DNA of 64,000 nucleotides. Origin: an uncultured Clostridia bacterium. GTDB lineage: Bacteria > Bacillota > Clostridia > TANB77 > CAG-508. The stretch's first letter is position 1, and each line of letters opens with the position of its first letter. Where the stretch lies: positions 1,982 through 65,981 of the forward strand of contig CAKPBB010000007.1 in the NCBI GenBank assembly GCA_934140005.1. Direction: 5' to 3'. The translations under genes were made by a program, and so were the position numbers. This document shows positions 1 to 32,270 of the stretch, piece after piece. A model generated the notes under the pieces. That model saw only the letters and a list, made by a program, of their open reading frames with translations. It was not told the DNA's origin and made no database searches.

Positions 1-446
1 ATTTTATCAGAATCTAAGGTATCTATATCTGAATATTTTCCAAATAGCTTTGAAGATTTATAGTTCAACTTCAAACTTGCATTTTTATCTGGTGTTTCTA
101 GCTTTATATTATCAATATATAATTTATTTACAGTATTTCGCTCTGTTAAATCTTGCTGTTTGCTTTTATTATCTATATAAATTGCTATATCTGTATATTG
201 TGAAATTGATAAGTTTTTCAAACTACTATCTTGGCTATTATCTTTTGCAGTTGCACTACTATACATCAAAATTTGATTTATTCTGAAATTTGAGCTTTGG
301 TTATCATTAAAATTAGCTACAACTTGCTCGGAAAATTCTTGTATTGCCTTATTCTTTTTTAAAATATAATAATAACACAAAATTACTAATATTATGATTG
401 CAATTATAATAACAGTTTTTACAATTTTTTTTATATTATTTTTCAC
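1..446 (-). CDS. Partial CDS (C-terminus off the left edge): N-terminally membrane-anchored hypothetical protein, last visible gene of the T4SS-like cluster
   Basis: Absent from the ORF track because it has no stop in the window. The reverse strand reads GAGGAGA (451-457), 4 nt, GTG (446), then VKNNIKKIVKTVIIIAIIILVILCYYYILKKNK..., open to position 1. A hydrophobic anchor follows the start directly. Confidence 0.5.
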   Translation of the reverse strand, partial: MKNNIKKIVKTVIIIAIIILVILCYYYILKKNKAIQEFSEQVVANFNDNQSSNFRINQILMYSSATAKDNSQDSSLKNLSISQYTDIAIYIDNKSKQQDLTERNTVNKLYIDNIKLETPDKNASLKLNYKSSKLFGKYSDIDTLDSDK

Positions 447-496
447 AATTTCTCCTCATTCATAAAACTTATTATTTAACAAAATTAAAATAAACT

Positions 497-1930
497 TTAT
501 GGTGCAATTTTATCATATAAACTTTTCATTGTATTATACACTTTTGTTGCCCAATCTGGATCACTTGCATATCTAACATTTACTCCTTTTGCTGTTGAAC
601 CATTGTAAAAACTACCAACTGCTACATCATCATCTGAAATACTCGTTCCTGCTGGATTCAAATAATATTTTGACAACATTTTAGTCACTGTATTTATTCC
701 ACTAGCATATCCATCAAAATTAACAGATGAATTATATGGATCTGAATCATAAGCACCATAGCCAAATAAATTATTCTTGTTTCGTGAAATAGTAGATGTC
801 CCCCATGCACTTTCATGAACACCAATAGCTGCAACAAATAAACCATTTACATTATATTTCTGTTCTGCATTATAAAAATTTTCTGCATTTTGTTCAAATA
901 TTTTATATGTATCTCTTGAATTATTAGAAAATATTTTTTTATAATCATCTAAAGTTAGTCCACTTTTTTGATTCATGCTCATATCTTCGTTTACATTTAC
1001 AATAATTTTTTGTTTTCTATTTTTTTCTACTATATCTGGTTCAATATTAGCAGATACAAAGTATTTCTTTTCTGCATATCCTACATAATCAAATATTTGT
1101 ACTTTGCACCAGTCTCCTTCTATATCAAGTAAACGTACATCATAATATTTTAAAATAATTCCTATTAGTTCTGAACTTGTATTCATTTCCTTATATAGAG
1201 ATGCATTTTCCTTTGCATATAAAGAATCTCCTATATGTATCTTTTGTTCTGCTAAATATTCATTAGTTCCTACATCAATTATTTGTGTTGTTGGCTCTTG
1301 AATAGTTTTTATACCAATTATTGTATCATTTACAATTTCTGAATTTGTTGAAGTTCTAATGAAAGAGACTTCTTCGATTCCTTGAACTCCCTCTCTACTA
1401 ACTTTTTGTTCGTCTTTTGGCAATTTTGAATTTTCAACATATTCTGTTTCAAAATCAATATTTCTTTGTGTTGTTAATAATTCTTTACTTTCAGTAGTAT
1501 TTATATTATCTATTAATATTTGTTGTATATTGATTATATTTTCATTTTTTTCAAAAGTTCCAATTATTTCTTTTTTCTTATTTTCATTATTACTTTCATC
1601 TTCTTTTGCAAATATATAATTACTTGAAAACATTGTAATACCAAGTAAAGCTACAACTGTTAACATTGCAATACTTAAAGGATCTCTGCCCTTAAATATT
1701 TCAATAACATTTATTTTTTGTTTAGGTATAGATTTATTTTTTTCTTTTAATTTTTTTCCAACACTTTTTTTATTGTGTGCTTTTTTTCCATTTTTTTCTT
1801 CTAATTGCTGTTTTATTTGAGCATCTCTACTTTTCTCTAACTCTTTAAACACATCTGGAAGGGATCTTAGTTGATTTTCTGAACTTCTTTCAGATTTTTG
1901 AATATTTTTCTTTTCATCTAAATTATTCAT
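497..1930 (-). CDS. Secreted or membrane-anchored peptidoglycan hydrolase: G5-like and SH3b-like segments plus a C-terminal N-acetylglucosaminidase (LytD/FlgJ-type) domain
   Basis: C-terminal GVHESAWGTS...NNLFGYGAYD...YASDPDWATKV matches the glucosaminidase signature. GDWCKVQIFDYVGYAEKKYF looks SH3b-like. The start was moved to ATG 1930 (MNNLDEKK), which is preceded by GGAGGGGG. Confidence 0.8.
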   Translation of the reverse strand: MNNLDEKKNIQKSERSSENQLRSLPDVFKELEKSRDAQIKQQLEEKNGKKAHNKKSVGKKLKEKNKSIPKQKINVIEIFKGRDPLSIAMLTVVALLGITMFSSNYIFAKEDESNNENKKKEIIGTFEKNENIINIQQILIDNINTTESKELLTTQRNIDFETEYVENSKLPKDEQKVSREGVQGIEEVSFIRTSTNSEIVNDTIIGIKTIQEPTTQIIDVGTNEYLAEQKIHIGDSLYAKENASLYKEMNTSSELIGIILKYYDVRLLDIEGDWCKVQIFDYVGYAEKKYFVSANIEPDIVEKNRKQKIIVNVNEDMSMNQKSGLTLDDYKKIFSNNSRDTYKIFEQNAENFYNAEQKYNVNGLFVAAIGVHESAWGTSTISRNKNNLFGYGAYDSDPYNSSVNFDGYASGINTVTKMLSKYYLNPAGTSISDDDVAVGSFYNGSTAKGVNVRYASDPDWATKVYNTMKSLYDKIAP

Positions 1931-2126
1931 TTTTCCCCCTCCTTCATTATATAGTTTCATTCTATTATACCATAATTATTTTATATCAATTAGTTATTTA
2001 TATCAATAGTAAATTTTAGATAATTTCGCAGCCTTTGTTCATGTGCAAAATTTATGTAATAACTTCTCTGTACATTTTTATCGAAAACTTTTATATAGTA
2101 TGCAATGTAAAGTACTTTCCTTGTAT

Positions 2127-2168
2127 AAAAAAACTGCCTATAAATTACTCATTTATAAGCAGTTTTTT
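2127..2168 (-). terminator. Rho-independent terminator after the 1382-aa hydrolase gene
   Basis: 17-bp stem (2129-2145 / 2151-2167, one mismatch) with a 5-nt loop and a flanking A/T run. Confidence 0.65.
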
Positions 2169-2179
2169 ACTATTTCATT

Positions 2180-5100
2180 TTAAGGATCTTCATTTTCATC
2201 TTCTGATTTCTCTGTATCACTTCCATCATCATTTTCTTCTTCGTTATCTTCATTTTCATCGGTTGATGTTGATGTTACAGAACTTTCAATTTCCAAATAA
2301 TCCTCTACATTTTCTAATATTGTATCTTTATTTGCTGTTCCATTTGCTCCATCTTCACTAGTTCTTAAGATTAATCTTATATAGTTTCCATTTGGTAAAT
2401 TATATTCTTTTCCATCGTCTGTTACATCTGTTTTCTTAGTCATCTTTGAAATACCAGGTCTTACTTTTGCATCATCTGGAAATTGATGAGAACCATTATC
2501 TCTTGATACAGAAGTTGGTGTTCCTTCATCTGTATATGTCTTTCCAAGAACTGTGCCTGCTTTTACAAAGAATTTACCATCAGATGTCTGGATATAAGGT
2601 TTTGCTTGTTCCATTACATCTTGTCGTTTTTCAAGTCGTTCTCTTGTATCTTTAGAAATTGACGAGTCATAAACCTCTCTTGTATAGAAATTTGCGATCT
2701 CTCCTGTCGAAGATTTATGTCCACTCTCATCTGTTACTTCTCCCATAAGAGCTTCATCATTAGTAAAGTTTAAGTTTTCGTCAACAATTCTAACGTCAAA
2801 GCCTTCTATATATAAAATGTAATCTGTTATTCCAGCCAAATTATAAGCTTCATAAAAATATTTATATCCTCTATAATCATCATTATCTGCATCAATATAA
2901 GCTTCTACATCAGATTTATTTATTGCTCTTATTTTAACGAATCCAACTTCTTCCTCAACTTGTGTTTCTATATTTTCTATTTTTGTTGTTCCAGCTTCAA
3001 TTATTTCACCTGTAATTGGTGATACAACATTTTCATATCCATCAAATCCAGTAAATTGTTTTGCAGCATTTTCAATTCTTATAATTTTTCCAGGAGCGTC
3101 TGGTGCATCAGCACCACTAGCAAATCCATTCCATCTAAATCCATTAATATATTTACTTTCCCAGTGCGTTGCTTTTCCGCAGTCATAAGTTATTATATCT
3201 CCATTTGGCGCAATTTCTTTTATTATTTGCATATGATGAACGTCACCACTTTCAGATACTCTAACCAGAATATCTCCCGCCTGTAACTTACTTCTACAAT
3301 CTTCATCATTACCAATTACTATTTCTTCCCAACCATATTTTGCATTCCAATCAGTATCTGTGAAAGTAGATGTACTTACAGTAGTACTTCCAAATTCATC
3401 ATATCCATACTCATATAAAACCCATGCAACATAACTACTACAATCAATTCTATTACTATCTTGGTATGGAGCTGGCTTTCCAGGAAATCTATATACATAA
3501 TCTCCTTTGTTTACAATATATTCCCAAACAGCTTTAGCTGTCTCTAAAAAAGTACCTCTTTGTAAACCAGAACCATTACCAGTACCATCAGCCGCATATA
3601 AGGCTTCCAATCCTGCTATCGGACTTATCAAATCTAAATTAATTACATTATCTTGGTCATTTTTCTCTGGTAATTTTTTATTATTTTCTTCAGCCAACTG
3701 TATTGTATCTGTTTTTCCAAAGATGTCTAAATCAAAATCTGGTGCAGTAGGTAAATCTCCATCTCCTGTATCAGAAATAATTGGTGTTAAAGCTTGATCT
3801 CTTTCTTTTAAGTTTACTAAATCTACTGTTGAATGAATTAATGTACCATATGTATCTGTACTTTTGTCAAATCTTTTTACTGGCCAGCCAGCTGAACCAG
3901 TTTCTGGTAATAGCCATTCACCAATATCTGTTGGTGCTTGTGTTAAATCTTCTTTATCAAAGTAGTTAAGCTCTACTATTAATTCTTTAAAATCTCTATA
4001 TATTGAATCAGAATCAAAAGTATTCATATTGGTTAGTATATTAAATGCTGTTAATGAATCTCTTGTTACTGAGAAATTTCCTATTAAGCTTGGATCTCTC
4101 TCGTCTTCTGGTGTGTTATCTTTTGACCTATCTGTATTTGCTTTATCTGCTGTAATTTTATCGGCTCTGTCTTTAGTACCATCATATTGATAATATTTAT
4201 TAGTTGAAAATATTTTTTTGATTGTTGCATTTGTTTCAGTTCTTTGAGCATCTTGTATTTGTGTTGGAATTTGTGACATATCAATACTCATCCACAAGTC
4301 TTCTAAATCACTTTTTAATAAATTCTTGCACATACTTTCAAGGTCTATTTCAATTCCTGCAGCATGTAATGCAGCTTGTACTAACTGAATAAATTCCTTT
4401 ATTGGCATCCATTCTGTTGGTGGTACAGTCAAATCATATGCACTCCAAAAGCCAGGATTAGTTAAATAATTTCCTTCTGCTTCTTCTGTAATAACTTTTG
4501 TTACAGCTTTTTTAGCAACTCTTATTCCTTCTTTTTCAGCATCTTCAGTTGTACCATTATATACTTCATCTGTTAAATTACCATCATTATCAAGTTTATA
4601 TAATGTATATTTAACATTTCCTTCGTCATCAACTGTGTTTTCATAATTTGTCCATCTTTCTTTTGTTAAAGTCTCATAATCATAATCATTGCTTACAACA
4701 GACATTAATAGTGGGGCTACAAAATAAACATCTCTAAACCAATGATCAGTTACTTTACTTATATATGGATAATAAGTTTTATTTTTTCCTAAAGATAATA
4801 TTTTCAAATCTGACATAGTATTGTCTATAAAGGTTTGACAATTACTACATACATCTGAAAATTCTTTTTCTCCTGATTGTATTTTTGGATCTTCTAATTC
4901 TGATACAGCTTTTTCTTTGCAACCACTTGTGCAATTGTTATTATCAAAAGTACTATTTATGAAATTTGCAGGTGTATAAGCAAGAACTGCACCATATCCC
5001 CCAGCCTCTTTATATTCTTTTAATTGTTTATAGGTTACGCAGTCATTTCCTAAAAGTATTAATTTCCTATTTTTAAAACCACCTATTATAGTGAATTCTG

Positions 5101-6328
5101 TCTCATGTAAAAGAACTACTACTTCTGTATCAAAGGACTTTGCCAAATCAATTGCTAAGTCCGGTGACATACTTGTCAAATGTACAGCTAATAAAAATTC
5201 TAAAGGTATCCCGTATCTAGCAGTCCATCCATCTAAGTTATAAGTAAAAGTTCCTACTGTTCCTGAAATATTTTTATCTCTTAATCCTAAATTAGAAAAT
5301 AATAATCCAAGGGCAGAATTATTATTATCTGTTTGCTCATTACTTGCTTTAGATGTAATTTTTAAAGTTTTAGTTTCTCCATCTATTTCAATGTCATATC
5401 TACTAAAAAAAGCATCTCTATATGGTTTACCAGTTAATCCAATTTTTCCTTCTCTCAATAAACTATCTTTTTCTTCATATAGTCCTAAAAGTCCACTACC
5501 CCACTTTTGTCTATCAAATATTCCAGATAGTAGTGTTCCTAATGAAGAAAATGCTTTTTTTACATTTTTATTAAAGTTTTTACAAGTATATACATAATTA
5601 TCTGAAATTAAATACGTTTTTAATATATCACTATCAATATTGGTTATCCCATCAGAAGTTCTTCCTATTCCATATTCATCTACATAAGCATTAGTTGCCA
5701 TATTCAAATATTTCTTATAATCAACATCATCTTCTTTATCTTCTGAATTCGAGTTAGAAGAATCACTATCTGAATCATTATCATTATTTTTAGTAAATTT
5801 GTCTTTTAATTCTTCAAAAAAATCTTTTGAATATGGTGAATTTACTTTTCCAGTTAAAAATCCATATTGATATAAATCATATCCCATACTTTCCAAATAA
5901 TCTGCAACATCTATAACATCCTGCATTTTTACAGTAGCTTTTTCTTCTCCTACAAAAAAAGCAGCTATTTTTTCGCCAAAGCTTTGTAGTATTGCATTTA
6001 GTTTTCCCATTAAAGCTCCTGGTAGTGTAAGTATAAACATTAGCAAACCAATGATTATAATAATAGCCACTATTACTAAAATAATAGGAACTAAATATGG
6101 CCCAATAATCTTTAGCACTGAAGAAATTACAGACATTCCCTTTGTATTACTCATTTTTTGCAAAATTTTCTGTTTTCTCATTTGTTGGTCTAAAAATTCT
6201 TTTGTTTTATTTTGAGCTATACTTGTATTTTGTTGTGTAGTTTCTTCTTCTTGATATTCATTTTGCTCAGATTCTTGTTCTACATTTTCTTCTGGTAATT
6301 CGTTATTTTCATCTTCTGAATAAAACAT
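2180..6328 (-). CDS. Giant (1382 aa) T4SS-associated cell-wall hydrolase paralog 1: acidic N-terminus, one TM, large unknown region, NlpC/P60-CHAP-like Cys peptidase, degenerate M23/LytM-like C-terminal domain
   Basis: IDCSSYVAWVLYEYGY ... GDILVR...HHMQII suggests a Cys/His NlpC/P60-like site. VVSPITGEIIEAGT...FVKAGTVLGKT...NYIRLILR is an M23-like beta scaffold with no obvious HxH. RBS AAGAGGA precedes the ATG. Confidence 0.7.
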   Translation of the reverse strand: MFYSEDENNELPEENVEQESEQNEYQEEETTQQNTSIAQNKTKEFLDQQMRKQKILQKMSNTKGMSVISSVLKIIGPYLVPIILVIVAIIIIIGLLMFILTLPGALMGKLNAILQSFGEKIAAFFVGEEKATVKMQDVIDVADYLESMGYDLYQYGFLTGKVNSPYSKDFFEELKDKFTKNNDNDSDSDSSNSNSEDKEDDVDYKKYLNMATNAYVDEYGIGRTSDGITNIDSDILKTYLISDNYVYTCKNFNKNVKKAFSSLGTLLSGIFDRQKWGSGLLGLYEEKDSLLREGKIGLTGKPYRDAFFSRYDIEIDGETKTLKITSKASNEQTDNNNSALGLLFSNLGLRDKNISGTVGTFTYNLDGWTARYGIPLEFLLAVHLTSMSPDLAIDLAKSFDTEVVVLLHETEFTIIGGFKNRKLILLGNDCVTYKQLKEYKEAGGYGAVLAYTPANFINSTFDNNNCTSGCKEKAVSELEDPKIQSGEKEFSDVCSNCQTFIDNTMSDLKILSLGKNKTYYPYISKVTDHWFRDVYFVAPLLMSVVSNDYDYETLTKERWTNYENTVDDEGNVKYTLYKLDNDGNLTDEVYNGTTEDAEKEGIRVAKKAVTKVITEEAEGNYLTNPGFWSAYDLTVPPTEWMPIKEFIQLVQAALHAAGIEIDLESMCKNLLKSDLEDLWMSIDMSQIPTQIQDAQRTETNATIKKIFSTNKYYQYDGTKDRADKITADKANTDRSKDNTPEDERDPSLIGNFSVTRDSLTAFNILTNMNTFDSDSIYRDFKELIVELNYFDKEDLTQAPTDIGEWLLPETGSAGWPVKRFDKSTDTYGTLIHSTVDLVNLKERDQALTPIISDTGDGDLPTAPDFDLDIFGKTDTIQLAEENNKKLPEKNDQDNVINLDLISPIAGLEALYAADGTGNGSGLQRGTFLETAKAVWEYIVNKGDYVYRFPGKPAPYQDSNRIDCSSYVAWVLYEYGYDEFGSTTVSTSTFTDTDWNAKYGWEEIVIGNDEDCRSKLQAGDILVRVSESGDVHHMQIIKEIAPNGDIITYDCGKATHWESKYINGFRWNGFASGADAPDAPGKIIRIENAAKQFTGFDGYENVVSPITGEIIEAGTTKIENIETQVEEEVGFVKIRAINKSDVEAYIDADNDDYRGYKYFYEAYNLAGITDYILYIEGFDVRIVDENLNFTNDEALMGEVTDESGHKSSTGEIANFYTREVYDSSISKDTRERLEKRQDVMEQAKPYIQTSDGKFFVKAGTVLGKTYTDEGTPTSVSRDNGSHQFPDDAKVRPGISKMTKKTDVTDDGKEYNLPNGNYIRLILRTSEDGANGTANKDTILENVEDYLEIESSVTSTSTDENEDNEEENDDGSDTEKSEDENEDP

Positions 6329-6437
6329 ATTAATCCTCTTTCGTTTTATTAATACAATTTTCTATCTTTTTTATCATTTTACATTATTTTTCAATATGTA
6401 GCAATAGAAATAGTTAACAAATTTATTTCTTTGCATA

Positions 6438-6486
6438 AAAAATAACCTACTCTATTAAATTTTATTTAACAAAATAGGTTATTTTT
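6438..6486 (-). terminator. Probable terminator after the 1398-aa hydrolase gene
   Basis: 12-bp perfect stem AAAAATAACCTA / TAGGTTATTTTT (6438-6449 / 6475-6486). The 25-nt loop is large, so confidence is moderate. Confidence 0.45.
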
Positions 6487-6492
6487 AATTAT

Positions 6493-9400
6493 TTAATTCT
6501 TGATTTGACTATCTAATAAATCTTCAACTGCATTTTCATCTTCCTCATTTGTATCTTCATCTTCATTTTCCTTGGTTTCATTTGAACTTGAAGCGGTTTC
6601 TATTTCTAAATAGTCTTCAACATTTTCTAATATAGTATCTTTATTAGCAGTTCCATTTGCTCCATCTTCACTAGTTCTTAAAATTAGTCTAATATAATTT
6701 CCGTTTGGTAAGTTATATGTTTGACCATCTTCTGATGTATCTGTTTTTTTCTCCATAGTTGCAATTCCAGGTCTTGCTTTTGCATCAGCTGGGAACTCTT
6801 GTGAATCTTCTTCTGTACTTGAAGTAGGTGTTCCTACATCTGTATATGTTTTTCCAAGAACTGTACCTGCTTTTACAAATATCTTTCCATCAGATGTCTG
6901 GATTACAGGAAGTGCTTGTTCCATCTTATCCTGTATTTCTTCTAGTCTTTCTCTTGTTGCTTTAGTTAATGTAGAATCATATATTTCTCTAGTATACATA
7001 TTTGCTATTTGACCTGTTGATGTTTCATTTCCATTTTCATCTGTTGTTTTACCCATAATAGCAGAATCGTTAAGTAAACTTAAATTTTGATCAACAATTC
7101 TTAAATCGAATCCTTCTATATATAAAATGTAATCTGTAATACCTGCTGTTTCATATTCTTCATAAAAATACTTATATCCTTCATAGTTTTCATCATTTTC
7201 ATTTATATAAGCTTCTACATCTGATTTATTTATTGCTCTTATTTTAATAAATCCAACATTTTCTTTTTGATTTGTTTCAATATTTTCAATCTCTGTTGTA
7301 CCAGCTTCAATAATTTCACCTGTTATTGGAGTTACAACATCTTCATAGCCATTGAAACCTGTAAATTTGTTTATCGAATCTTCAATTCTAATAATTTTTC
7401 CAGCACCATATAGTGTACCATTTATTTCACCAGTTCCTTTTGCAAATGCAGACCAGCTTGTATATCCATTTCTATATTGATTAGCCCAGTGAGTATCATT
7501 TCCACAATCATATGCAACTACATTACCATTTGGTGAAATTTCTTTTATAATTTGTATATGTCCATGTTTTTTATCTGCTGTTTGTCTTACTAATAAATCG
7601 CCTGGTTGTAACTTACTTGTACAATCTTCTCCTGCCTCAACATCTATTACTTCCCAACCATATTTTGCAGCCCAATCAGTACTAACATAAGTACCTGTAT
7701 AATATGTTGTTTGTCCAAATTCTTCGTATCCATATTCATATAAAACCCAAGAAACGTAGCTACTACAATCTATTACACTACTATTTTGATATGGAGCAGC
7801 TGTTCCTGGAGCGCCATAACTGTATTTCTTTGCATCAACAATATATTCCCAAACAGCTTGTGCTGTATCTAATAATGTATCTCTTTGTAGTCCTGATCCA
7901 CTACCATTTATATCTGCTGCATAAACTGCCTTAAGTCCAGCTACTGGACTTACTAAGTCCAAATTTATTACATTATCTTGCTCATTTTTTTCAGGTAATT
8001 TCTTTTCAACTGTAGTTGCAAATTCTAATACATTTGAATCTCCTGTTGTTCCATCTTCTACATCTGGGGCAGTTGGCTCATTACCATCTGTTTCGCCTGC
8101 TCCTATTATTGGATTTAATATATCATCTCTTTCTCTTAAGTTAGTTAAATCTGCTTTTGAATGAATTAGAGTTCCATAATAGTTTTCATTTTTGTCATAT
8201 TTTTTAATTGGCCAGCCAGCTGAACTTGTTTCCGGTAATAGCCATTCGCCAATAGAAGTTGGAATTTGTGTTAAATCTTCTTTATCAAAATAGTTAAGCT
8301 CTACTATTAATTCTTTAAAATCTCTATATATTGAATCAGAATCAAAAGTATTCATATTTGTTAATATATTAAATGCTGTTAATGAATCTCTTGTTACAGA
8401 AAAGCTTCCTATTAAATTTGGATTTCTCTTATCTTCTGCAGTATTATCTAATTTTCTATATCCTTCTGTAGCTTTCTTATCTTTTTCAATATCATCTGCT
8501 CTCTTTTGAGTTCCATCATACTGGTAATATTTATTAGTTGAAAAGATTTTCTTAATTGTTGAGTTGGTCTCAGTTCTTTGAGCATCTTGTATTTGTGTTG
8601 GAACCGCAGACATATCAATACACATCCATAAATCTTCCAAATCACTATTTAAAAGATCCTCACACATTTGCTCTAAATTAACATTTATACCTGCTGCTTC
8701 TAATGCTGCTTGTGCTAATTCAATAAATGCTTTTAATGACATCCATTCTGTCTCTGGTGTTTCAACATCATATGCTGACCACATATTTTCGCCAAAAATT
8801 GCTGCATTTGATACACCTTCTGCTTCGTCTTCAATACTTTTTGTAATAGCTTTTTTAGCAACTTTTATACCTTCTTTTTCAGCATCTTCAGTTGTACCAT
8901 TATATACTTCGTTAGTTAGTTCACCATCATCATTTAACTTATATAGTTTATATGTTCCATCATCATTCATTTCATAAGATGTCCAACGCTCTTTTGTACG
9001 CAATTCATAATCATAATCATTACTTACTACTTTCGTCTTATTGGGAGCTACAAAATAAACATCTCTAAACCAATGTTCTGTTACTTTACTAATGTATGGA
9101 TAGAAAGTCTCATTTTTTCCTAGTGATAGCACTCGTAAATCCGAAATTGTATTATCTATAAAAGTTTTACATTCACTGCAAACATCTGAAAATTCCTTTT
9201 CACCTGATTGAACTTTTGGATCTTTTGCTTCATCAATTGCTTTTTGTTTACATCCACTTCCACAGTCACTTGATTTGAATGAGCTTGGTGTATAAGCAAG
9301 AACAGCTCCATATCCACCATTTTCTTTATATTGTTTCAATTTATCATAGGTTACCCTATCTCCACTACTAGTTAATGAATTTTCAGCCTTCAAAAATCCA

Positions 9401-10689: not shown

Positions 10690-10712
10690 TCTATCACCTC
10701 TTTTGCTACAAA

Positions 10713-11669: not shown

Positions 11670-11678
11670 ATTATCCTC

Positions 11679-14913: not shown

Positions 14914-14935
14914 AACTACCACCAAACTCTCCTAT

Positions 14936-25498: not shown

Positions 25499-26767
25499 TT
25501 AGTTTTCTGAAGTTCTTCTTCTAACTATTTTCTTTTTTGGAGCATCTACACTTCTTGCTGTTTCTTCCTTAACCACAGGAGTATTTTTCTTTTGTTTTTC
25601 ATCTATTGTTTTTTCTACTTCTTTTTTAGCTAATTTATAAACTTTTGGATCTAATTGATCTTCATAAGTATCTAATAATTCTAATGCTTTTTCTTTTACT
25701 TTTTGATCTTTATTTAATTGTCTTGATAATTCTTCTTGTTGTTTCATCTTATCTGCTTTTAATATACTATCTGTTGCAATATCAATTGCTTCAAGATTTA
25801 TCTCTCTATCCATTTTCTCTTGTTTCTTTTGCAATACATCTTTACCTGAACTATATAGTGCATCATACTGTGCATCTAAAGCCTTTGATAATTGTAATAA
25901 TTCCGCTTCATCTCTGTTATAAGCAATATATAATAATTCTGCTAATTCTTCTGAATCTAATATTTTACTTGTAATTTGTGATGTTGCTAAAGCACTAGCA
26001 ATGTTTTGGCATCTTGTATATAATTCTGAAAAACACATATTATATATTTCTTCTTTTGTATAATTTCCAAGTCCTCCACCTATTTCAGCAGAATAATAAG
26101 AAACTACAACATAAGTCTTTTGTTGAAGTACGTTTCTATTTGAACTTAATTTTTCAACATAATCTGTAATGTTAATACCATATTCTAAAACATTTACTTT
26201 TCTTTTTCGTTCAAATTGTAATTTTTCAACTAAAGATCTATTTCCTTGTGCTTTTGCTTGTGCAATTCTTGCATCTAATTTATCAATATCTTCTGACAAA
26301 TTATTTACTCTTCCCTTATATGTAGCAATTATATCTCTCAAGTTTAAAGTTCTACTTTGAATATATAATTGAATTGGAAATCTTAAAGTATTTAAAAATT
26401 GAACAAATCCCTCTTCAACAGCTATTTTTTCTTGCTCACTCATTAAGTCATAATTTACGCCATTGCATTGAAGAACCATTATGAATTGTGTGCCATTTTT
26501 TCTAACAATCATATTATCAACAATTTCATCAAATTCCATAAATTGATAAATTGATTCTGTTGTCAATTCACCTTGAAATCTACCATAGTTATCAATTTTC
26601 TTTTCTTTTTCTTTAGAGTTATCACTATCTACATCACTGGCTATAATTTTACTTTCTTCTTTTTTAGTCTTTGGTCTTAGCAAATATATATATAATGCTA
26701 TTAATAAAAACATTATGAAAAATATTACGAAAATTAATATCTGTAACATAGGAATCATACTATCCAT
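25499..26767 (-). CDS. TM protein with a VirB4-N-terminal-like domain and a long coiled coil, but no ATPase domain
   Basis: IVDNMIVRKNGTQFIMVLQCNGVNYDLMSEQEKIAVEEGFVQFLNTLRFPIQLYIQS resembles the N-terminal domain of Tn916-Orf16-type VirB4 proteins (from memory). No P-loop. Its start abuts the stop of the PrgI-like gene. Confidence 0.4.
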   Translation of the reverse strand: MDSMIPMLQILIFVIFFIMFLLIALYIYLLRPKTKKEESKIIASDVDSDNSKEKEKKIDNYGRFQGELTTESIYQFMEFDEIVDNMIVRKNGTQFIMVLQCNGVNYDLMSEQEKIAVEEGFVQFLNTLRFPIQLYIQSRTLNLRDIIATYKGRVNNLSEDIDKLDARIAQAKAQGNRSLVEKLQFERKRKVNVLEYGINITDYVEKLSSNRNVLQQKTYVVVSYYSAEIGGGLGNYTKEEIYNMCFSELYTRCQNIASALATSQITSKILDSEELAELLYIAYNRDEAELLQLSKALDAQYDALYSSGKDVLQKKQEKMDREINLEAIDIATDSILKADKMKQQEELSRQLNKDQKVKEKALELLDTYEDQLDPKVYKLAKKEVEKTIDEKQKKNTPVVKEETARSVDAPKKKIVRRRTSEN

Positions 26768-27103
26768 CTATTTGTCCTCCTTTGTATAGCTGTAAATCTT
26801 TCTATTCTTTTTAAATTTGAAATATCTAATAATAATTTCACTTAATGGCTCTCCACCAATTTTTTTAGTAATTGGAATACTCACTATAGTTGGTATTTTA
26901 ACTGCTCCAACTACATATCCCAAAACACCACAAAGAGCTGTTATTATTAGTCCAACAGTTTTCATATTTAGTACCATAAATATTAATAAAAATATTGAAC
27001 CTATAACAGCACCTATTGCAGTTGAAATTAAAGATTTTACAGTAAATATATATAAGAATCTTGTTTCTCCTTTATAATTACGAGGTATATAATATGTTCC
27101 CAT
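26768..27103 (-). CDS. PrgI/TcpE (VirB3-like) small membrane protein
   Basis: 111 aa. Has YYIPRNYKGETRFLYIFTVKSLI followed by two hydrophobic helices, and sits just upstream of the VirB4-type genes. Confidence 0.55.
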   Translation of the reverse strand: MGTYYIPRNYKGETRFLYIFTVKSLISTAIGAVIGSIFLLIFMVLNMKTVGLIITALCGVLGYVVGAVKIPTIVSIPITKKIGGEPLSEIIIRYFKFKKNRKIYSYTKEDK

Positions 27104-27144: not shown

Positions 27145-27537
27145 CTAAAATTTTTCTACAATTGAAATAACTATCTTCCAAATGAAATATGCACCAAAAA
27201 TAACAAAACCTGAAACAACTAAACCAATTAATTGTTGTTTTAATTTAGCTTGCGCTTCTGGAGTAGCTGTAATATATTTTATTCCCATATATAAAGTAAC
27301 AGCAACTAAAACACCTGCACCAATAGTTGTTAAAATTGAACCTAAATCAACTAAATCTTCAAAAATGTTTTCACCATTTACATTGCCAGCTCCATCTTTT
27401 CCTTTATTCAAAAATGTTTGTGTTTGATTTTGCATCTCACTTAATGTTAGAGCTTCTACTTTTGATGTATTCACTAAAGATAAACTTATTATAAAGAAAG
27501 CTATCAATGTAATTAAAACTTTTTTTGTTATTTTCAT
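27145..27537 (-). CDS. VirB2/TrbC-like pilin paralog 1 (most divergent)
   Basis: Signal peptide, variable segment, then TM, a charged loop and a second TM: GAGVLVAVTLYMGIKYITATPEAQAKLKQQLIGLVVSGFVIFGAYFIW. Confidence 0.6.
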   Translation of the reverse strand: MKITKKVLITLIAFFIISLSLVNTSKVEALTLSEMQNQTQTFLNKGKDGAGNVNGENIFEDLVDLGSILTTIGAGVLVAVTLYMGIKYITATPEAQAKLKQQLIGLVVSGFVIFGAYFIWKIVISIVEKF

Positions 27538-27754: not shown

Positions 27755-28135
27755 CTATTCCGGATTTCCTAAAACTCCATTTGTAAAATTAGCAACTAAA
27801 GCAACTAAATTCACACCAGCAAATAGTAAAATGCAACCAATTACAATTGGCATTGCTTTATTTTTTATAGTAGCTTTTTCTTCAACACTTGATACCATAT
27901 ATTTAGCTCCAAGTATTGTAACCGTAATAACTGCAATTGCTGTGCCACCTAATTGTAAATAACCAATAATATCATTTAAAATTGCATTTACACCTGTATT
28001 CGTACCACCACTAGTATCTAACTTTGATACATTTTTCATTGACTCTAGGTCTAATTCAAATCCTGCTGCATTTACATTTACAGCATATATCAAGATAAAA
28101 AATATTGTTAATGTAATTACAAATATTTTTTTCAT
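27755..28135 (-). CDS. VirB2/TrbC-like pilin paralog 2
   Basis: Signal peptide, then GGTAIAVITVTILGAKYMVSSVEEKATIKNKAMPIVIGCILLFAG. Confidence 0.6.
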   Translation of the reverse strand: MKKIFVITLTIFFILIYAVNVNAAGFELDLESMKNVSKLDTSGGTNTGVNAILNDIIGYLQLGGTAIAVITVTILGAKYMVSSVEEKATIKNKAMPIVIGCILLFAGVNLVALVANFTNGVLGNPE

Positions 28136-28164: not shown

Positions 28165-28548
28165 CTATTCAACTTTTATGCTATTATCTGCAAAATCTCT
28201 TATTATTGTTACTAGGAAACTAGCTCCCATCATTACAACAGCACCTATAACATATACTGTTGCACCTTTTTTGATTTCTGCTCTATCATTTGGAGATGAA
28301 ACCATATATTTAATTGCAAGAACTGTTAACATTATAATAGCAATTGCAGCTGTTGCTATTCTTACGGCATCAAGTATTCCTGCAAATAAATTTGTAACTT
28401 CATTACTTCCTTGTAAATCAGATCCACTTGAACCACCAAAACTACTTGTAATCTCAGAACCGCTTACAGCAAAAACCTGTGAAAATATTGCAAATATAAA
28501 TAAACTTATTAATAAAAGAATACTAATTTTTTTTATATATTTCTTCAT
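28165..28548 (-). CDS. VirB2/TrbC-like pilin paralog 3
   Basis: AAIAIIMLTVLAIKYMVSSPNDRAEIKKGATVYVIGAVVMMGA. The start was moved to ATG 28548 (MKKYIKK). Confidence 0.6.
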   Translation of the reverse strand: MKKYIKKISILLLISLFIFAIFSQVFAVSGSEITSSFGGSSGSDLQGSNEVTNLFAGILDAVRIATAAIAIIMLTVLAIKYMVSSPNDRAEIKKGATVYVIGAVVMMGASFLVTIIRDFADNSIKVE

Positions 28549-28703
28549 ATAAATCTTTCCCTTCACTATTCATATAAGGCTATATGTTCCTTTACACACT
28601 ATTATATTAATTATAAACTATTTAAATATTTTTTTCAACATCAGTGCTAAAATTTATCAAATCATTTTCTTTTACTGAATTTTTCGACATATTTTTTATT
28701 TTC

Positions 28704-28734
28704 ATACCATATATGTCATTTTATATGGTATAAT
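28704..28734 (+). promoter_or_regulatory. Extended -10 promoter (TGgTATAAT) overlapped by a 10-bp perfect inverted repeat
   Basis: TGGTATAAT lies at 28726-28734, 27 nt before ATG 28762. ATACCATATA (28704-28713) and TATATGGTAT (28722-28731) are perfect inverted arms. Confidence 0.4.
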
Positions 28735-28761
28735 ATCTAAAAATTTATTTGGAGGTTTAAA

Positions 28762-30366
28762 ATGAAAAAAATATCAAAAAATAAAGTATTTTTTATTTTT
28801 TCATGCTTAGCAATTGCCTTTTTCACAGCAGCATTAGTTCCAAAAACATTTCAAAATGATACTTTTTTCAATATTTCTATTGGAAAATATATTTTAAATA
28901 ATGGTATTGATATGCAAGAACATTTTTCATGGGTACCAAATCTAGCTTATACTTATTCCCACTGGGCATTTGATATAATTATATATCTTTTATACAATTG
29001 TTGGAATTTTACAGGTATCTATGTTTTTACAATTATTTTTTCAGCAATTATAGCTGTTACTTTATTTACTCTATTATCAAAAGCATATAAAACTCCTGTT
29101 TCTGCTTTTTTAGTAACAGCTGTTTCTGTCTTCGTAGTAAAAGATGCATTTACAGCACGTTCACAAATAATATCTTTCTTATGTTTTATAATTGAAATAT
29201 ATTGTTTAGAACAATTTATAGAAACAAATAAAAAAAGATATCCTTTAATATTAGTTGCATTATCAATAGTTATAGCAAATTTTCATGCAGCAACTTGGCC
29301 TTTAATTTTAGTTTTATTTTTACCATATCTTGCTGCTGGATTTTTCAATCTAATTTCTTGTAAAAACATTTATACTTTTTTAGCTAATTTTAAAGAAAAA
29401 CAATTACAAAAATTAGATATAAATTCTTCTAAGGCAACTAAATGCAAAGAAGATATTGAATATTATAAAAAACTAGCAAAAGATAAAATTTTATCTGATA
29501 AATCAAAATTACAATTAAGAAATGATTACAACTTTAAAAATTTAATTATTGTGTTCATCATAATTTCACTTACAGGTTTAATTACACCAATACATGGTGT
29601 ACCTTATACATATATAATAAAATCTATGACTGGAACAAGCAATTTTGAAAATGCAGTTTCAATTGATTACATTAGTGAAATGCAACCAATTATTCCCGTA
29701 GGCAGTTTAGCATTTTTTGTTTTTTTAAGTTTGATTATTTTTACACTAGCATTCATGCCAACCAAAATAAAAGTAGAACATGGATTTTTAATACTAGGTC
29801 TTTTAATAATGACACTATATAGCAGACGCTATGTATATTTATTAGTTCTACTTAGTGCATTTCCAATTTGTGAACTTATTTCACAATGTGTTAACAAAGA
29901 TACGGAAAAGCAAATTGAAAATTCCATATTATCATTTATATTATGTATATGTTCAATAATCTTTCTATTTGTAAGTATTTTTAATAAACAAGAAGATCCT
30001 TATGTAGATGAAACAAAATATCCTACAAAAGTAGTAGATTATATAAAAGAAAATGTAGATTACAAAAATATGAGAATTTATAATTCTTATGATAATGGAA
30101 GTTATTTGATGTTAAATGATATTCCTGTTTTCATAGATTCTAGGCTAGATGTTTATTGTAGCGAATTTAATGATACTGATGTTTTTAAAGACTACATCTA
30201 TGTAACAGCTGGAAAAGCAAATTATGAGAATATTTTCTCAAAATATGATTTTACACATATTTTATTATATAAAAAAGAAATTGCTAATCAATATATTACA
30301 AATGATACAAATTACAAATTATTATATGAAGATGAATATTTCTCTTTTTATCAAAAATTAAATTAA
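28762..30366 (+). CDS. Polytopic membrane protein with a C-terminal soluble domain; possible GT-C-fold glycosyltransferase, embedded in the pilin array on the opposite strand
   Basis: About 11-13 hydrophobic helices, a first-loop acidic/aromatic motif (QNDTFFNISIGKYIL) and a GGAGG RBS. The functional call rests on topology only. Confidence 0.35.
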   Translation: MKKISKNKVFFIFSCLAIAFFTAALVPKTFQNDTFFNISIGKYILNNGIDMQEHFSWVPNLAYTYSHWAFDIIIYLLYNCWNFTGIYVFTIIFSAIIAVTLFTLLSKAYKTPVSAFLVTAVSVFVVKDAFTARSQIISFLCFIIEIYCLEQFIETNKKRYPLILVALSIVIANFHAATWPLILVLFLPYLAAGFFNLISCKNIYTFLANFKEKQLQKLDINSSKATKCKEDIEYYKKLAKDKILSDKSKLQLRNDYNFKNLIIVFIIISLTGLITPIHGVPYTYIIKSMTGTSNFENAVSIDYISEMQPIIPVGSLAFFVFLSLIIFTLAFMPTKIKVEHGFLILGLLIMTLYSRRYVYLLVLLSAFPICELISQCVNKDTEKQIENSILSFILCICSIIFLFVSIFNKQEDPYVDETKYPTKVVDYIKENVDYKNMRIYNSYDNGSYLMLNDIPVFIDSRLDVYCSEFNDTDVFKDYIYVTAGKANYENIFSKYDFTHILLYKKEIANQYITNDTNYKLLYEDEYFSFYQKLN

Positions 30367-30387
30367 ATCTTATTTCTATGCACATAT

Positions 30388-30430
30388 AAAAATACTGTTG
30401 ATATATTTTCTCTTATCAACAGTATTTTTT
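30388..30430. terminator. Bidirectional terminator between convergent genes
   Basis: 16-bp perfect stem AAAAATACTGTTGATA / TATCAACAGTATTTTT with a 10-nt loop. Confidence 0.75.
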
Positions 30431-30445
30431 ATATTTTTAAAATTA

Positions 30446-30829
30446 CTATGCCTTTATATTTCCTTGTGCAAATTTTTGAATAATTGCTAAAATTCCAGAT
30501 GCTGCAAACATTACAACTGCCCCAACTATATAAACAACTGCATATTTTTTTATCTCTGCTTTTTCGTTTGGTGCTGATGACATATATTTAATTGCTAATA
30601 CAGTTAGCATTATTAAAGCTACACCAACTGCTACTATTCTTGCAACTTGTAATATTGCACCAACAATATTAGTAGTTGAACTAGCAGCTGCACTATTATC
30701 TGTTTTTCCATCAATTGCTGATATTTTGCTTCCAAAATCATATCCATCGGCATATACCATTGGCATGAAAGCACTTACAACAGTAGTGAATATAATTATA
30801 GACACTAAAACTATACTTAATTTTTTCAT
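30446..30829 (-). CDS. VirB2/TrbC-like pilin paralog 4
   Basis: VGVALIMLTVLAIKYMSSAPNEKAEIKKYAVVYIVGAVVMFAASGIL. Confidence 0.65.
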   Translation of the reverse strand: MKKLSIVLVSIIIFTTVVSAFMPMVYADGYDFGSKISAIDGKTDNSAAASSTTNIVGAILQVARIVAVGVALIMLTVLAIKYMSSAPNEKAEIKKYAVVYIVGAVVMFAASGILAIIQKFAQGNIKA

Positions 30830-30846
30830 ACTTCTCCTCCTAACTT

Positions 30847-31239
30847 CTAACTAGCTGATATATTGCTAGAGAATTTTTCAATTATTTGTAAAATTCCTGC
30901 TGCTCCGAATAGTACAATTGCACCTACTACATATACAACTGCATGTTTTTTTATAGAAGCTCTATCATTTGGTGCTGATGACATATATTTGATTGCTAAT
31001 ACAGTTAGCATTATTAAAGCTACACCAACTGCTACTATTTTTAGTATGTAAAAAACTGCGCCTATTACATTGCCAACAGAATCTGCTGCAGCTGAATTTC
31101 CAGCACCTTCAATTGAAGATATATCTGGCATTGCACTTCCTTCTGCAAAGACATTACCTTGAAACGCAACTAATACTGTTGAAAAAATTATTAGTGCTAT
31201 TGCAAGGATCATTCCTTTTTTTAATAAAATCTCCTTCAT
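30847..31239 (-). CDS. VirB2/TrbC-like pilin paralog 5
   Basis: VGVALIMLTVLAIKYMSSAPNDRASIKKHAVVYVVGAIVLFGAAGIL. Lies 17 nt from paralog 4. Confidence 0.65.
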   Translation of the reverse strand: MKEILLKKGMILAIALIIFSTVLVAFQGNVFAEGSAMPDISSIEGAGNSAAADSVGNVIGAVFYILKIVAVGVALIMLTVLAIKYMSSAPNDRASIKKHAVVYVVGAIVLFGAAGILQIIEKFSSNISAS

Positions 31240-31262
31240 ACTTTTTCTCCTTTTTTATATTT

Positions 31263-31634
31263 CTATGCTTGCATGTTTGAATTTACAAATTTTTCGATTA
31301 TTTGTAAAATTCCTGCTGCTCCAAATAGTACAACAGCTCCTATAACATATACAACTGCATTTTGTTTTATTGTAGCTCTTTCGTTAGCAGAAGAAGCCAT
31401 ATATTTAATTGCTAATACAGTTAACATTATTATTCCAGCTCCTACTGCAACAATCTTAATAATATACAATAATGTTCCAGCTGCTGTTTCTATTGAATTT
31501 CCAATTTGTCCACTATTTCCGTTATCAAAAGCTTTAACATCATAATTGTTATTGCTTGCAAAACTTGGAATAGATAATACAATGCAACTTAATAACAAAA
31601 AGATTGTAACACAACATATCAATTTTTTGCTCAT
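31263..31634 (-). CDS. VirB2/TrbC-like pilin paralog 6
   Basis: VGAGIIMLTVLAIKYMASSANERATIKQNAVVYVIGAVVLFGAAGIL. Lies 23 nt from paralog 5. Confidence 0.65.
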   Translation of the reverse strand: MSKKLICCVTIFLLLSCIVLSIPSFASNNNYDVKAFDNGNSGQIGNSIETAAGTLLYIIKIVAVGAGIIMLTVLAIKYMASSANERATIKQNAVVYVIGAVVLFGAAGILQIIEKFVNSNMQA

Positions 31635-31835
31635 ATCAAGCTCCTTTCAAATTGATTCTTAATTTAAATTATATAACATATTTACATTCTTTTCAATATT
31701 ATATAAATACAATTCCATTAAATATTTTATCTTTTTACAATATTTTTTGTCAATAAATTATAATTTTTGTAATCTAAAAGATATGTTAGAAATTTAAACT
31801 AAGCAATCTTCAAATATTTATAGTATTAAAAAAGC

Positions 31836-31862
31836 AAAAAAAGACTCTCTGTAAAGAGAGCC
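31836..31862 (-). terminator. Rho-independent terminator after pilin paralog 7
   Basis: The minus-sense RNA reads GGCUCUCU-UUAC-AGAGAGUC followed by UUUUUUU. Confidence 0.75.
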
Positions 31863-31877
31863 TTCTTCTTTTCAAAT

Positions 31878-32270
31878 TTAGTTGTTAGGACCTTGGATAT
31901 TTTTTGAAAAAGATTTGATAATTTGTAAGATACCTGTAGCGGCAAATAATACAATTGCACCTACAACATATACAACAGCATGTTTTTTGATATCTGCTTT
32001 ATCACCAGGAGCTGCTGAAATATATTTAATAGCAAGAACTATTAACATAATAATAGCAACACCAGTACCAATGATTTGGACAATATTAATTAAAGCACCA
32101 ATAATATTTTGTGAACTTTCAGATGCACCAGAAGTATCTTTTCTGTTATTAAATTGTCCAATATTAAGTCCATCATCAGATTGTGTTGCAAAAACAACTT
32201 GTGTTCCAACAGCTACTACCATCATTGCTACTAATAAAATAGCAACTATTTTCATAACTTTCTTTGTCAT
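31878..32270 (-). CDS. VirB2/TrbC-like pilin paralog 7 (monocistronic)
   Basis: TGVAIIMLIVLAIKYISAAPGDKADIKKHAVVYVVGAIVLFAATGIL. It has its own terminator. Confidence 0.65.
   Translation of the reverse strand: MTKKVMKIVAILLVAMMVVAVGTQVVFATQSDDGLNIGQFNNRKDTSGASESSQNIIGALINIVQIIGTGVAIIMLIVLAIKYISAAPGDKADIKKHAVVYVVGAIVLFAATGILQIIKSFSKNIQGPNN

Follow-up and report, generated by a model that had tools for sequence, protein, structure and literature searches.

Gene content and order

A 64,000-nucleotide stretch of contig CAKPBB010000007.1 (positions 1,982 to 65,981), from an uncultured Clostridia bacterium, was analysed and is called the window here. Positions 1-32270 of the window are occupied by one uninterrupted cluster resembling a type IV secretion system (T4SS), with 22 genes on the minus strand and a single gene on the plus strand (28762-30366). 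The cluster encodes seven VirB2-type pilins, a PrgI/VirB3 protein, a TraC-like protein, the ATPase VirB4, three paralogous polytopic membrane proteins and three cell-wall hydrolases. Gene calls, ribosome-binding sites and profile matches agree that the large T4SS-like cluster reported in a preliminary description of this DNA is real and intact. That description counted 24 co-oriented genes and one gene on the opposite strand. The opposite-strand gene was borne out, but the co-oriented genes number 22, the first of them cut by the window edge. All open reading frames (ORFs) of the cluster are complete, giving 23 intact genes, and the edge-cut gene, which encodes a protein of 274 amino acids (aa), is whole on another contig, L001.

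Transcription of the cluster runs from right to left. Pilins 1-4 come first, then the opposite-strand gene and pilins 5-7, followed by PrgI/VirB3 (111 aa), the TraC-like protein (422 aa), VirB4 (661 aa), a polytopic protein (422 aa), two bitopic proteins (401 and 514 aa) and a 157-aa protein. Downstream of these are two further polytopic proteins (1319 and 890 aa), two more bitopic proteins (182 and 318 aa), two giant hydrolases (1398 and 1382 aa), a glucosaminidase (477 aa) and the 274-aa protein. A GGAGG-type ribosome-binding site precedes almost all of the genes and the majority of intergenic gaps are shorter than 50 nt. The GC content of the cluster (28%) is not markedly different from that of its flanks (25%).

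The seven pilins announced in the preliminary description are all present. Six of them pass the gathering score of PF18895 (T4SS_pilin) or PF04956 (TrbC/VirB2) and the seventh is marginal. In order of transcription, all on the minus strand, they are pilin 1 (31878-32270, 130 aa, PF18895 37.3 bits), pilin 2 (31263-31634, 123 aa, PF04956 29.2 bits and PF18895 26.6 bits), pilin 3 (30847-31239, 130 aa, PF18895 32.4 bits), pilin 4 (30446-30829, 127 aa), pilin 5 (28165-28566, 133 aa as listed, PF18895 35.9 bits), pilin 6 (27755-28135, 126 aa, PF04956 33.3 bits) and pilin 7 (27145-27537, 130 aa, PF18895 32.8 bits), the last lying directly upstream of the machinery genes. Pilin 4 is the marginal one: its PF18895 score of 25.6 bits falls just short of the 26.6 cut-off, and it shares about 58-60% identity with the adjacent pilin 3. 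Each of the seven has a predicted signal peptide and two transmembrane (TM) helices, and the pilins are 22-60% identical among themselves. The GTG start of pilin 5 has no ribosome-binding site and gene callers give a product of 127 aa; translation probably begins at the ATG at 28548. The pilin profile returned nothing useful from PDB sequences and showed no detectable relation to TrsB of plasmid pSK41.

VirB4 (23497-25482, minus strand) is the sole ATPase of the cluster. It matches the Pfam families P-loop_TraG, AAA_10 and DUF87, the solved VirB4 structure PDB 4AG5 (E=3.5e-25) and the VirB4-like families of NCBIfam (E=1e-59 to 1e-62, under their equivalog cut-offs), the best of which are CD1110 and the VirB4 of a Mycoplasma integrative and conjugative element (ICE). 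The Walker A residues G267, G269 and K270 and the Walker B residues D528 and E529 are invariant or nearly so among 71 diverse homologues. A Walker A scan of 1-32270 detected no second protein with this motif, so VirB4 carries the only credible Walker A of the block, as had been claimed; the string 'AGTVLGKT', which occurs twice in the hydrolases, matches the motif by chance.

The 111-aa protein (26768-27103, minus strand) has two TM segments. The window copy itself has no Pfam match within the E=0.01 limit, and all 34 orthologues that were scanned (43-72% identical) match PF12666 PrgI, the best of them with E=2.7e-8. By orthology the protein is thus assigned to PrgI/VirB3, and the earlier VirB3-like label holds. 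Between VirB3 and VirB4, the position that TrsD occupies in pSK41, lies the TraC-like protein (25499-26767, minus strand), a TM-anchored cytoplasmic protein with a precomputed PF26593 (TraC-like) match. Its hhalign comparisons are weak both with TrsD (E=0.026, probability 1.9%) and with the VirB4 profile (probability 13.6%). BLASTP against VirB4 found nothing, and PDB sequence and profile searches were empty. The AlphaFold2 model of this protein is poor (pLDDT 52.6), with a shallow alignment of sequences that are 68-94% identical.

Borders of the cluster and absence of DNA-transfer genes

The left flank could be read from contig L001 (389 kb, from a Hadza gut metagenome), which is 100% identical to positions 1-11930 of the window and extends 9.5 kb further left. 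The window holds the 5' part of the last cluster gene (1-446, minus strand), with a GTG start at 446 and a GAGGAG ribosome-binding site. The whole gene (L001, 11485-12309) encodes a bitopic membrane protein without a Pfam match or other known domain, and housekeeping genes come next. Beyond the remainder of this gene, L001 carries CNNM/CorC, two M16 peptidases, Lgt, a Spo0E-like protein, MscS, a patatin, an SDR protein and an amylase. No type IV coupling protein (T4CP), relaxase or recombinase is encoded in these 9.5 kb. The suggestion that such genes might be missing from the window because they lie to the left of position 1 was therefore not confirmed.

On the right, the cluster adjoins an ArsC-family gene, tRNA-Met (33046-33121) and then genes for a membrane protein, an alpha/beta hydrolase, ComEA, DacA, LCP and CvpA, which agrees with the housekeeping genes and tRNA described there before. 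The tRNA was considered as an integration site of the cluster and rejected: the cluster lies on its 5' side, a housekeeping gene stands between them, and a search for repeats of the tRNA end found none. No att-like repeats flank the cluster, and its two borders have only AT-rich 12-15-mers in common.

Neither a relaxase nor a recombinase was found in or beside the cluster. For 1-32270 the reported absence of both is thus correct. It does not extend to the entire window, which contains a relaxase (55826-57241) and a tyrosine integrase (62378-63583) in a separate element. A tblastn search with the T4CP of a Clostridium beijerinckii plasmid had no match in the window, in L001 or in 80 related loci from other species. 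No T4CP was found within 10 kb of VirB4 in any of these 80 species. The Walker A ORFs that do occur within this distance are unrelated (ABC transporter, YqeY, AAA_14, FtsH, adhesin-like surface proteins and AbiEii-type AAA_21). The negative result for T4CP covers the cluster, about 43 kb of this genome and the 10-kb flanks in the 80 species.

Conservation across species and strains

In a collection with one genome per species, at least 491 genomes contain a close relative of VirB4, and the best 80 of these (71-93% identical) were compared. All 80 hosts are metagenome-assembled genomes of uncultured gut Clostridia from human, mouse, rabbit, ruminant and chicken, several of them named Ca. Scatovivens. 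The host of the window is placed near Ca. Scatovivens, in the order TANB77 and family CAG-508. Bacteria of TANB77 are abundant in the gut, and their abundance has been linked to immunotherapy response. Ca. Scatovivens belongs to GTDB order TANB77, family CAG-508 (PMC13106387), and TANB77 bacteria are uncultured, have reduced genomes, are prevalent in the human gut and are of clinical interest, and Coprococcus co-varies with them (PMC11680825).

The order of pilins, PrgI, TraC-like protein, VirB4 and polytopic protein(s) is kept in all 80 loci, and where the 10-kb flank is long enough the bitopic pair and a giant hydrolase come next. The number of pilins varies from 3 to 7 among related species. 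Flanking genes in the relatives are housekeeping genes (ribosomal protein S2, EF-Ts, GidA, NrdD, RNA polymerase). VirB4 is also found in exact or near-exact copies on dozens of metagenome contigs, a 1.17-Mb contig encodes a VirB4 that is about 90% identical, and three conspecific contigs from different samples have identical layout and flanks. Synteny of the cluster thus extends over the 80 best-matching of at least 491 species-level genomes and holds within the species too. Among 1.84 billion protein-cluster representatives the family is isolated: there is one VirB4 representative at 66% identity, and the next full-length relatives are at about 40%.

VirB4 is more conserved than the genes around it. 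In the same genomes VirB4 is 87-93% identical, compared with 51-60% for DacA and 57-71% for the ArsC-family protein. Its pairwise identity tracks that of the adjacent M16 peptidase (rho 0.68; means 82% and 61%). Between strains of the species VirB4 shows 4-13 synonymous changes and 0 amino-acid changes, and it is under very strong purifying selection. Because gene order is conserved, the flanks are housekeeping genes, VirB4 exceeds its neighbours in conservation and its divergence tracks that of the adjacent M16 peptidase, the cluster is best regarded as a vertically inherited core function and not as a mobile element.

The preliminary description had named two outcomes that would speak for mobility, and neither was encountered. 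A patchy distribution with clear att sites is contradicted by the synteny and by the lack of flanking att-like repeats. An ordinary ICE, with T4CP, relaxase and recombinase immediately to the left, is contradicted by L001. A related possibility is that the cluster is the decaying remnant of an integrated conjugative element which lost its mobility genes. The absence of T4CP, relaxase and integrase in and beside the cluster and the presence of a tRNA gene nearby would fit this, but all 23 genes are intact, at least 80 species share their order, purifying selection on VirB4 is very strong, no att-like repeats are present and the 3' end of the tRNA faces away from the cluster. Decay of this kind is very hard to reconcile with the data and we give it almost no weight.

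Variation and predicted transcription signals of the first pilin

Pilin 1 appears to be monocistronic. It has a strong promoter-like site of its own (32340-32312) and its own terminator, a hairpin resembling an intrinsic terminator with a 15-bp stem followed by a T run, directly 3' of the gene (31836-31869, minus strand). Terminator-like sites in the scanned region number four, against 1.3 expected. Promoter-like sites are also found before pilin 2 (31753-31724 and 31696-31668) and pilin 7 (27610-27582, with 11/12 positions matched). When pilin ORFs of other species were compared with the seven pilins of the window, pilin 1 was the best match for 147 of them.

No gene of the region varies more between conspecific strains than pilin 1 (window compared with L088, 3207-3599, and L089, 3210-3602). 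It has 7-8 amino-acid changes and a ratio of nonsynonymous to synonymous substitution rates (dN/dS) of about 2.2, calculated from 11 substitutions in total. The changes are confined to residues 32-51, just past the predicted signal peptide, and residues 128-130. The helices and the basic loop (KYISAAPGDKADIKKH) are invariant across strains. In the solved VirB2/TraA pili the termini point outward and the loop lines the lumen. Variation that is limited to the termini, together with a promoter-like site and a terminator of its own, fits an assembled, exposed filament of which pilin 1, the candidate major pilin, is the major subunit. Pilin 1 is probably the major and separately transcribed subunit, and the other pilins are probably variants or minor subunits. 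With strain variation at its two termini only, pilin 1 is also a candidate surface antigen.

Comparison with known secretion systems

The closest resemblance in design is to the T4SS of Patescibacteria/Saccharibacteria, exemplified by Ca. Southlakia epibionticum (SEML1_0006-0019). That system is likewise chromosomal and present lineage-wide in reduced genomes, and consists of VirB3/PrgI, a protein in the TrsD position, VirB4, a polytopic membrane protein and hydrolases. It also has an array of divergent VirB2-like pilins, with 2-11 genes (PF18895 and PF04956 are among the profiles used to detect them; PMC12102498), and it too has no relaxase and no adjacent coupling protein. In Ca. Southlakia epibionticum the T4SS, including the pilin array, is essential for epibiotic growth (PMC10633639; PMC12102498; PMC12857230).

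The two systems differ in their hosts, the present one being a true member of Bacillota (Clostridia, TANB77), and in their largest components: the window encodes three polytopic paralogues, two of them with extensions of 500-1000 aa, and hydrolases of about 1400 aa. The nearest VirB4 relatives that carry organism names are Firmicutes, with the caveat that few of the relatives at 30-40% identity are named. Since these named relatives are Firmicutes, the T4SS of TANB77 is probably of independent origin from that of Patescibacteria.

A review of December 2025 considers Patescibacteria unique among monoderms in their potential for conjugative-type pili, VirB2 being otherwise absent from Gram-positive T4SSs (PMC12857230). 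The combination of a pilin array and a monoderm T4SS core with neither relaxase nor T4CP has so far been described only in Patescibacteria. Its occurrence as a conserved chromosomal trait in an ordinary order of Firmicutes challenges the current generalisation about T4SSs (PMC12857230). It also provides a second lineage, probably an independent one, in which to ask what a monoderm T4SS without T4CP does.

Among Gram-positive conjugation systems, the MPF_FATA type of pSK41, pGO1 and pIP501 has a colinear core: a VirB2-like protein of the CagC family, TrsC (VirB3), TrsD, TrsE (VirB4), a membrane protein and a CHAP hydrolase. TrsE of pSK41 aligns end to end with the window VirB4 at 23% identity (E=6e-19). 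In contrast to the cluster, pSK41 is a plasmid and carries a VirD4-like T4CP, a MobA/MobL-family protein (annotated as a candidate relaxase), topoisomerase III and SSB; where the cluster has a pilin array, pSK41 has one small VirB2-like gene. This gene, upstream of TrsC (L090, 25115-25432), is labelled 'CagC family type IV secretion system protein' in RefSeq, that is, VirB2-like. The label is awkward against reviews that deny VirB2 homologues to Gram-positive conjugation systems.

The closest annotated VirB4 proteins (40-41% identical) are found on large Clostridium plasmids, C. beijerinckii p1 (NZ_CP107023) and C. botulinum p12/29 (NZ_KT897275). On the C. botulinum plasmid the local order is the same: the gene for a pilin-like protein is followed by those for a 105-aa protein, for a homologue of the TraC-like protein with 334 aa, for VirB4, for a polytopic protein whose hairpin is pilin-like, and for a peptidase. 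The gene map of C. beijerinckii p1 agrees by gene sizes, and its VirB4 is 40.6% identical. Unlike the cluster, these systems are plasmid-borne, have one pilin-like gene each and use a C39-family peptidase as hydrolase, and C. beijerinckii p1 has a confirmed T4CP 12 kb upstream of VirB4. The confirmed coupling protein is of the VirD4 type. Both plasmids are typed 'non-mobilizable' by MOB-suite; they may be conjugative despite this typing.

The core colinear with pSK41, the position of the closest VirB4 proteins on Clostridium plasmids and the T4CP on one of these, in C. beijerinckii, together suggest that the cluster is a domesticated descendant of a Firmicutes plasmid T4SS. Plasmid-borne relatives that still have a coupling protein thus point to the source of the cluster.

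A rival possibility is a working conjugation or mobilisation apparatus whose T4CP and relaxase are encoded elsewhere in the genome. It would transfer the chromosome or help to move mobilisable elements, of which the window contains one (42.5-63.8 kb). T4CP genes are often distant from virB4 (PMC12102498), the element in the window has a MOB relaxase with no T4SS or T4CP of its own, and the nearest plasmid relatives are probably conjugative, as the C. beijerinckii T4CP indicates. Against this, no T4CP turned up in about 43 kb of this genome or within 10 kb of VirB4 in 80 species, and the lineage-wide vertical conservation, with VirB4 above its housekeeping neighbours, does not match the behaviour of conjugative modules. 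A seven-pilin array is moreover foreign to known monoderm conjugation systems (PMC12857230). We consider conjugation in trans unlikely, though less so than the remnant discussed above.

Two other systems resemble the cluster in part. The rvh T4SS of Rickettsiales is also found in reduced genomes, is chromosomal and vertically inherited and has an expanded VirB6 (large extended paralogues) and, in relatives, an expanded VirB2 (PMC2653234). It differs in being a diderm MPF_T system with VirB7-B11 and VirD4, in its scattered islands and in translocating effectors into cells of eukaryotes. The resemblance is to be taken as an analogy only.

The second is a Tad-type pilus cluster found in TANB77 itself, which is order-wide, annotated as a pilus and contains about seven 'pilin-like' genes (PMC11680825). 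It was considered whether this published cluster of conserved TANB77 pilins is the locus described here, and the identification was rejected. The Tad cluster consists of different genes (CpaB, TadZ/CpaE, the CpaF ATPase, TadB/C and type IV-pilin-like proteins of 143-621 aa), none of which occurs in this window, and PMC11680825 does not describe the T4SS cluster. No description of this T4SS cluster was found in the searchable literature.

Polytopic and bitopic membrane proteins

The envelope-exposed parts of the cluster are expanded, with seven pilins, three polytopic paralogues (two of them with long extensions) and three hydrolases. The first polytopic protein (422 aa; 22210-23478, minus strand) lies directly downstream of VirB4, in the position of VirB6. 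The second (1319 aa; 14936-18895, minus strand) has a hydrophilic extension of about 1000 aa rich in coiled coils, and the third (890 aa; 12253-14925, minus strand) a hydrophilic C-terminal extension of about 500 aa. Each has at least six TM segments. They are paralogues, about 30-32% identical over the shared membrane part (BLASTP E 1e-35 to 1e-49), with the 890-aa protein matching the other two at E=1e-48 to 1e-49. None matches a TrbL/VirB6 Pfam profile. The three VirB6-like sets of the preliminary description are thus three polytopic paralogues, to which the name VirB6 applies by position and topology only.

The 422-aa polytopic protein has a weak NCBIfam match to the Mycoplasma ICE TM protein Mbov_0396, and its residues 179-242 match T4SS_pilin (E=0.0027). 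The first TM hairpin of the polytopic proteins is pilin-like: 21 scanned orthologue sequences match PF18895 (28 orthologues of the 422-aa protein were in the scan), and the hairpin also matches the pilins of the cluster itself. The homologue on the C. botulinum plasmid (L085, 13074-15668) has the same hairpin matching PF18895. The presence of this hairpin both in the proteins in the VirB6 position and in the C. botulinum homologue suggests a module shared by pilins and channel proteins. The 890-aa protein shows weak homology to the 864-aa protein adjoining VirB4 on C. botulinum p12/29. The 1319-aa protein differs in length between conspecific strains (1318 and 1326 aa).

The 157-aa protein (18917-19390, minus strand) is secreted or membrane-bound and resembles the N-terminal ectodomain of the 422-aa polytopic protein (residues 46-150, BLASTP E=1.8e-6). 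Two pairs of bitopic proteins are encoded in the cluster, all on the minus strand. The 514-aa protein (19419-20963) has no Pfam match and is present in most of the closer species, and the 401-aa protein (20975-22180) is its paralogue (E=2e-23). The 318-aa protein (10713-11669) is confidently modelled with an NTF2-like domain and a beta-sandwich in addition to its TM segment (AlphaFold2 pLDDT 89.6, pTM 0.76), and the 182-aa protein (11679-12227) is its distant paralogue (30% identity). In other species too the gene for the 318-aa protein adjoins the polytopic genes, and the 182-aa gene is co-conserved with it. Foldseek found no match to the 318-aa model at E<=1e-3, and none to VirB8, TcpC or PrgL; the matches obtained, to NTF2-like folds and to lipoproteins with a beta-sandwich, were weak (E 3e-3 or worse). 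At the level of the predicted fold only, the 318-aa protein is a candidate VirB8-type scaffold. PDB sequence and profile searches with the giant hydrolase, the 422-aa polytopic protein and the 318-aa family profile gave nothing useful.

Cell-wall hydrolases

Three hydrolases are encoded at the left end of the cluster, all on the minus strand. The 477-aa protein (497-1930) has a TM segment, a G5 domain, an SH3-like domain and an N-acetylglucosaminidase domain. Glucosaminidase (57.8 bits) and G5 (53.2 bits) both score above the Pfam cut-offs, so the cluster contains a hydrolase of the VirB1 type. The exact product is on record in 14 contigs, and gene callers start it at the second ATG of a 487-aa ORF.

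The two giant proteins (1382 aa, 2180-6328; 1398 aa, 6493-10689) are about 64-66% identical to each other. The 1382-aa protein is bitopic and has a Cys/His module of the NlpC/P60-CHAP type at about residues 960-1050, with an 'IDCSSYV' Cys motif and a downstream His (CHAP E=0.0018, sub-threshold). The 1398-aa paralogue has a single N-terminal TM segment and sub-threshold matches to CHAP (E=7.7e-5) and NLPC_P60 (E=8.7e-4). The two 1400-aa hydrolases of the preliminary description are thus present as paralogues with Cys/His motifs, but their CHAP and NlpC/P60 matches lie below threshold. In other species the corresponding position is taken by proteins with strong lysozyme or NlpC/P60 matches, and the catalytic modules are swapped from species to species: Lysozyme_like with a sub-threshold GDSL-like match, NlpC/P60, or Phage_lysozyme2 with NlpC/P60 (L038, 16579-20907; L045, 16802-21727; L065, 15703-19299). 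The long N-terminal region of the giant proteins has no family match. The 1382-aa protein is a candidate for a VirB1-like role.

The swapping of modules between species, which is typical of effectors, and the duplication of the giant hydrolases in this genome raise the possibility of a contact-dependent weapon or feeding device that delivers these proteins to neighbouring bacteria, as the antibacterial T4SS of Xanthomonas does. Known antibacterial T4SSs recruit their effectors through VirD4 (PMC8740702), and VirD4 is absent from the cluster. In having an N-terminal TM anchor the hydrolases resemble the VirB1-type enzymes that act in assembly of monoderm T4SSs (PMC12102498), and no candidate immunity genes were identified. 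A role in killing or feeding is therefore improbable.

The hydrolases also bear on whether the cluster could be a T4CP-independent machine for DNA uptake or release, comparable to ComB of Helicobacter or the archaeal Ced system. Both of these are conserved chromosomal systems with neither T4CP nor relaxase (PMC12102498), VirB4 has weak NCBIfam matches to CedB and CedD, and comEA (36073-36669) is located 4 kb from the cluster. The CedB and CedD matches, however, cover the P-loop region only and are far under the cut-offs. ComEA is part of the usual ComEC pathway, and the proximity of its gene to the cluster is not maintained from species to species. Deletion of comEC in Ca. Southlakia abolished competence and left viability unaffected (PMC12857230), so the T4SS is not essential there by way of ComEC-dependent DNA uptake. 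Three large peptidoglycan hydrolases and two extended polytopic proteins would also go unexplained. DNA uptake or release is accordingly given a low probability, on a par with that of a weapon.

Proposed function

The proposal in the preliminary description of a chromosomal T4SS-derived machine without a conjugative DNA-processing module is supported by the left flank, the synteny and the absence of att-like repeats, and such a machine would presumably be non-conjugative. Our preferred interpretation, which we hold to be probable though far from certain, is a domesticated, T4CP-independent chromosomal T4SS that builds a pilus or conduit for contact between cells. The system would descend from a monoderm conjugation system and would have lost its link to coupling protein, relaxase and recombinase.

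A mechanism of this kind might operate as follows. The hydrolases would open the peptidoglycan locally, and PrgI/VirB3 together with the TraC-like protein would dock a VirB4 hexamer at the membrane. The channel through membrane and wall would consist of the polytopic proteins and the bitopic NTF2-like ones. VirB4 would then pull VirB2-type pilins out of the membrane and polymerise them into a pilus or conduit. With no coupling protein, DNA transfer led by a relaxase would not take place, and the structure would instead serve contact or exchange with other cells.

Several observations count against the interpretation as a domesticated contact system. Ca. Southlakia has a T4CP homologue whose gene lies far away from virB4 (PMC12102498), and the negative T4CP result obtained here applies to the cluster and its flanks. 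A relaxase-bearing element without a T4SS is present in the same genome, which implies that some conjugative route into or out of the lineage exists. The assignments of VirB6, VirB8 and TrsD are weak, being based on position, topology or weak profiles. The dN/dS value of pilin 1, finally, is derived from just 11 substitutions.

A more far-reaching suggestion is that TANB77 bacteria depend on physical contact with bacterial partners or with the host, mediated by the pilus-bearing T4SS together with the conserved Tad pilus. This is speculative and we regard it as doubtful. If true, it would represent a convergent re-invention of the Saccharibacteria epibiont toolkit within Firmicutes and would explain the resistance of these bacteria to cultivation. 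For TANB77 (PMC11680825), the cluster supplies a specific, testable hypothesis about lifestyle and about why these bacteria have not been cultured.

Other features of the window

The plus-strand gene inside the pilin array (28762-30366) encodes a 534-aa membrane protein with about 10 TM segments and no Pfam or NCBIfam match. It is 24% identical to a 474-aa membrane protein encoded just past tRNA-Met (33347-34771, plus strand), which has no family match either. In several related species a homologue is found just outside the pilin array, adjoining the ArsC-family gene. A function of the 534-aa protein as a PMT-type glycosyltransferase modifying the pilins was considered and rejected, as neither the window copy nor a homologue in a related species matches any family. 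The PMT_2 matches that were seen belong to other ORFs.

The second half of the window contains an integrated mobilisable element of about 21.2 kb (42554-63755) with att repeats of its own. Exact 19-bp direct repeats, TTCCCCAACTTTTCCCCAA, mark its two ends (42554-42572 and 63737-63755). The element encodes a tyrosine integrase (62378-63583) and a relaxase of the MobA/VirD2 type (55826-57241), the only relaxase in the window, and has no T4SS or T4CP of its own. It carries replication genes, and the proteins encoded include a ParB-like protein, a DnaC/IstB-like ATPase, a phage-type replisome organiser and a DUF6076 protein. The defence cargo of the element comprises an N6-methylase fused to an HsdR N-terminal domain, GmrSD and a 1572-aa NTPase with a SMEK domain, along with a possible specificity subunit that has no Pfam match.

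Outside this element, a 34-nt repeat of the form TTGTGTTGCTGGAAAGC occurs in three copies that overlap one another (41433-41517). The copies lie a short way upstream of a gene (41604-42395) whose product has a pyrophosphatase domain, and could be operator or iteron-like sites.

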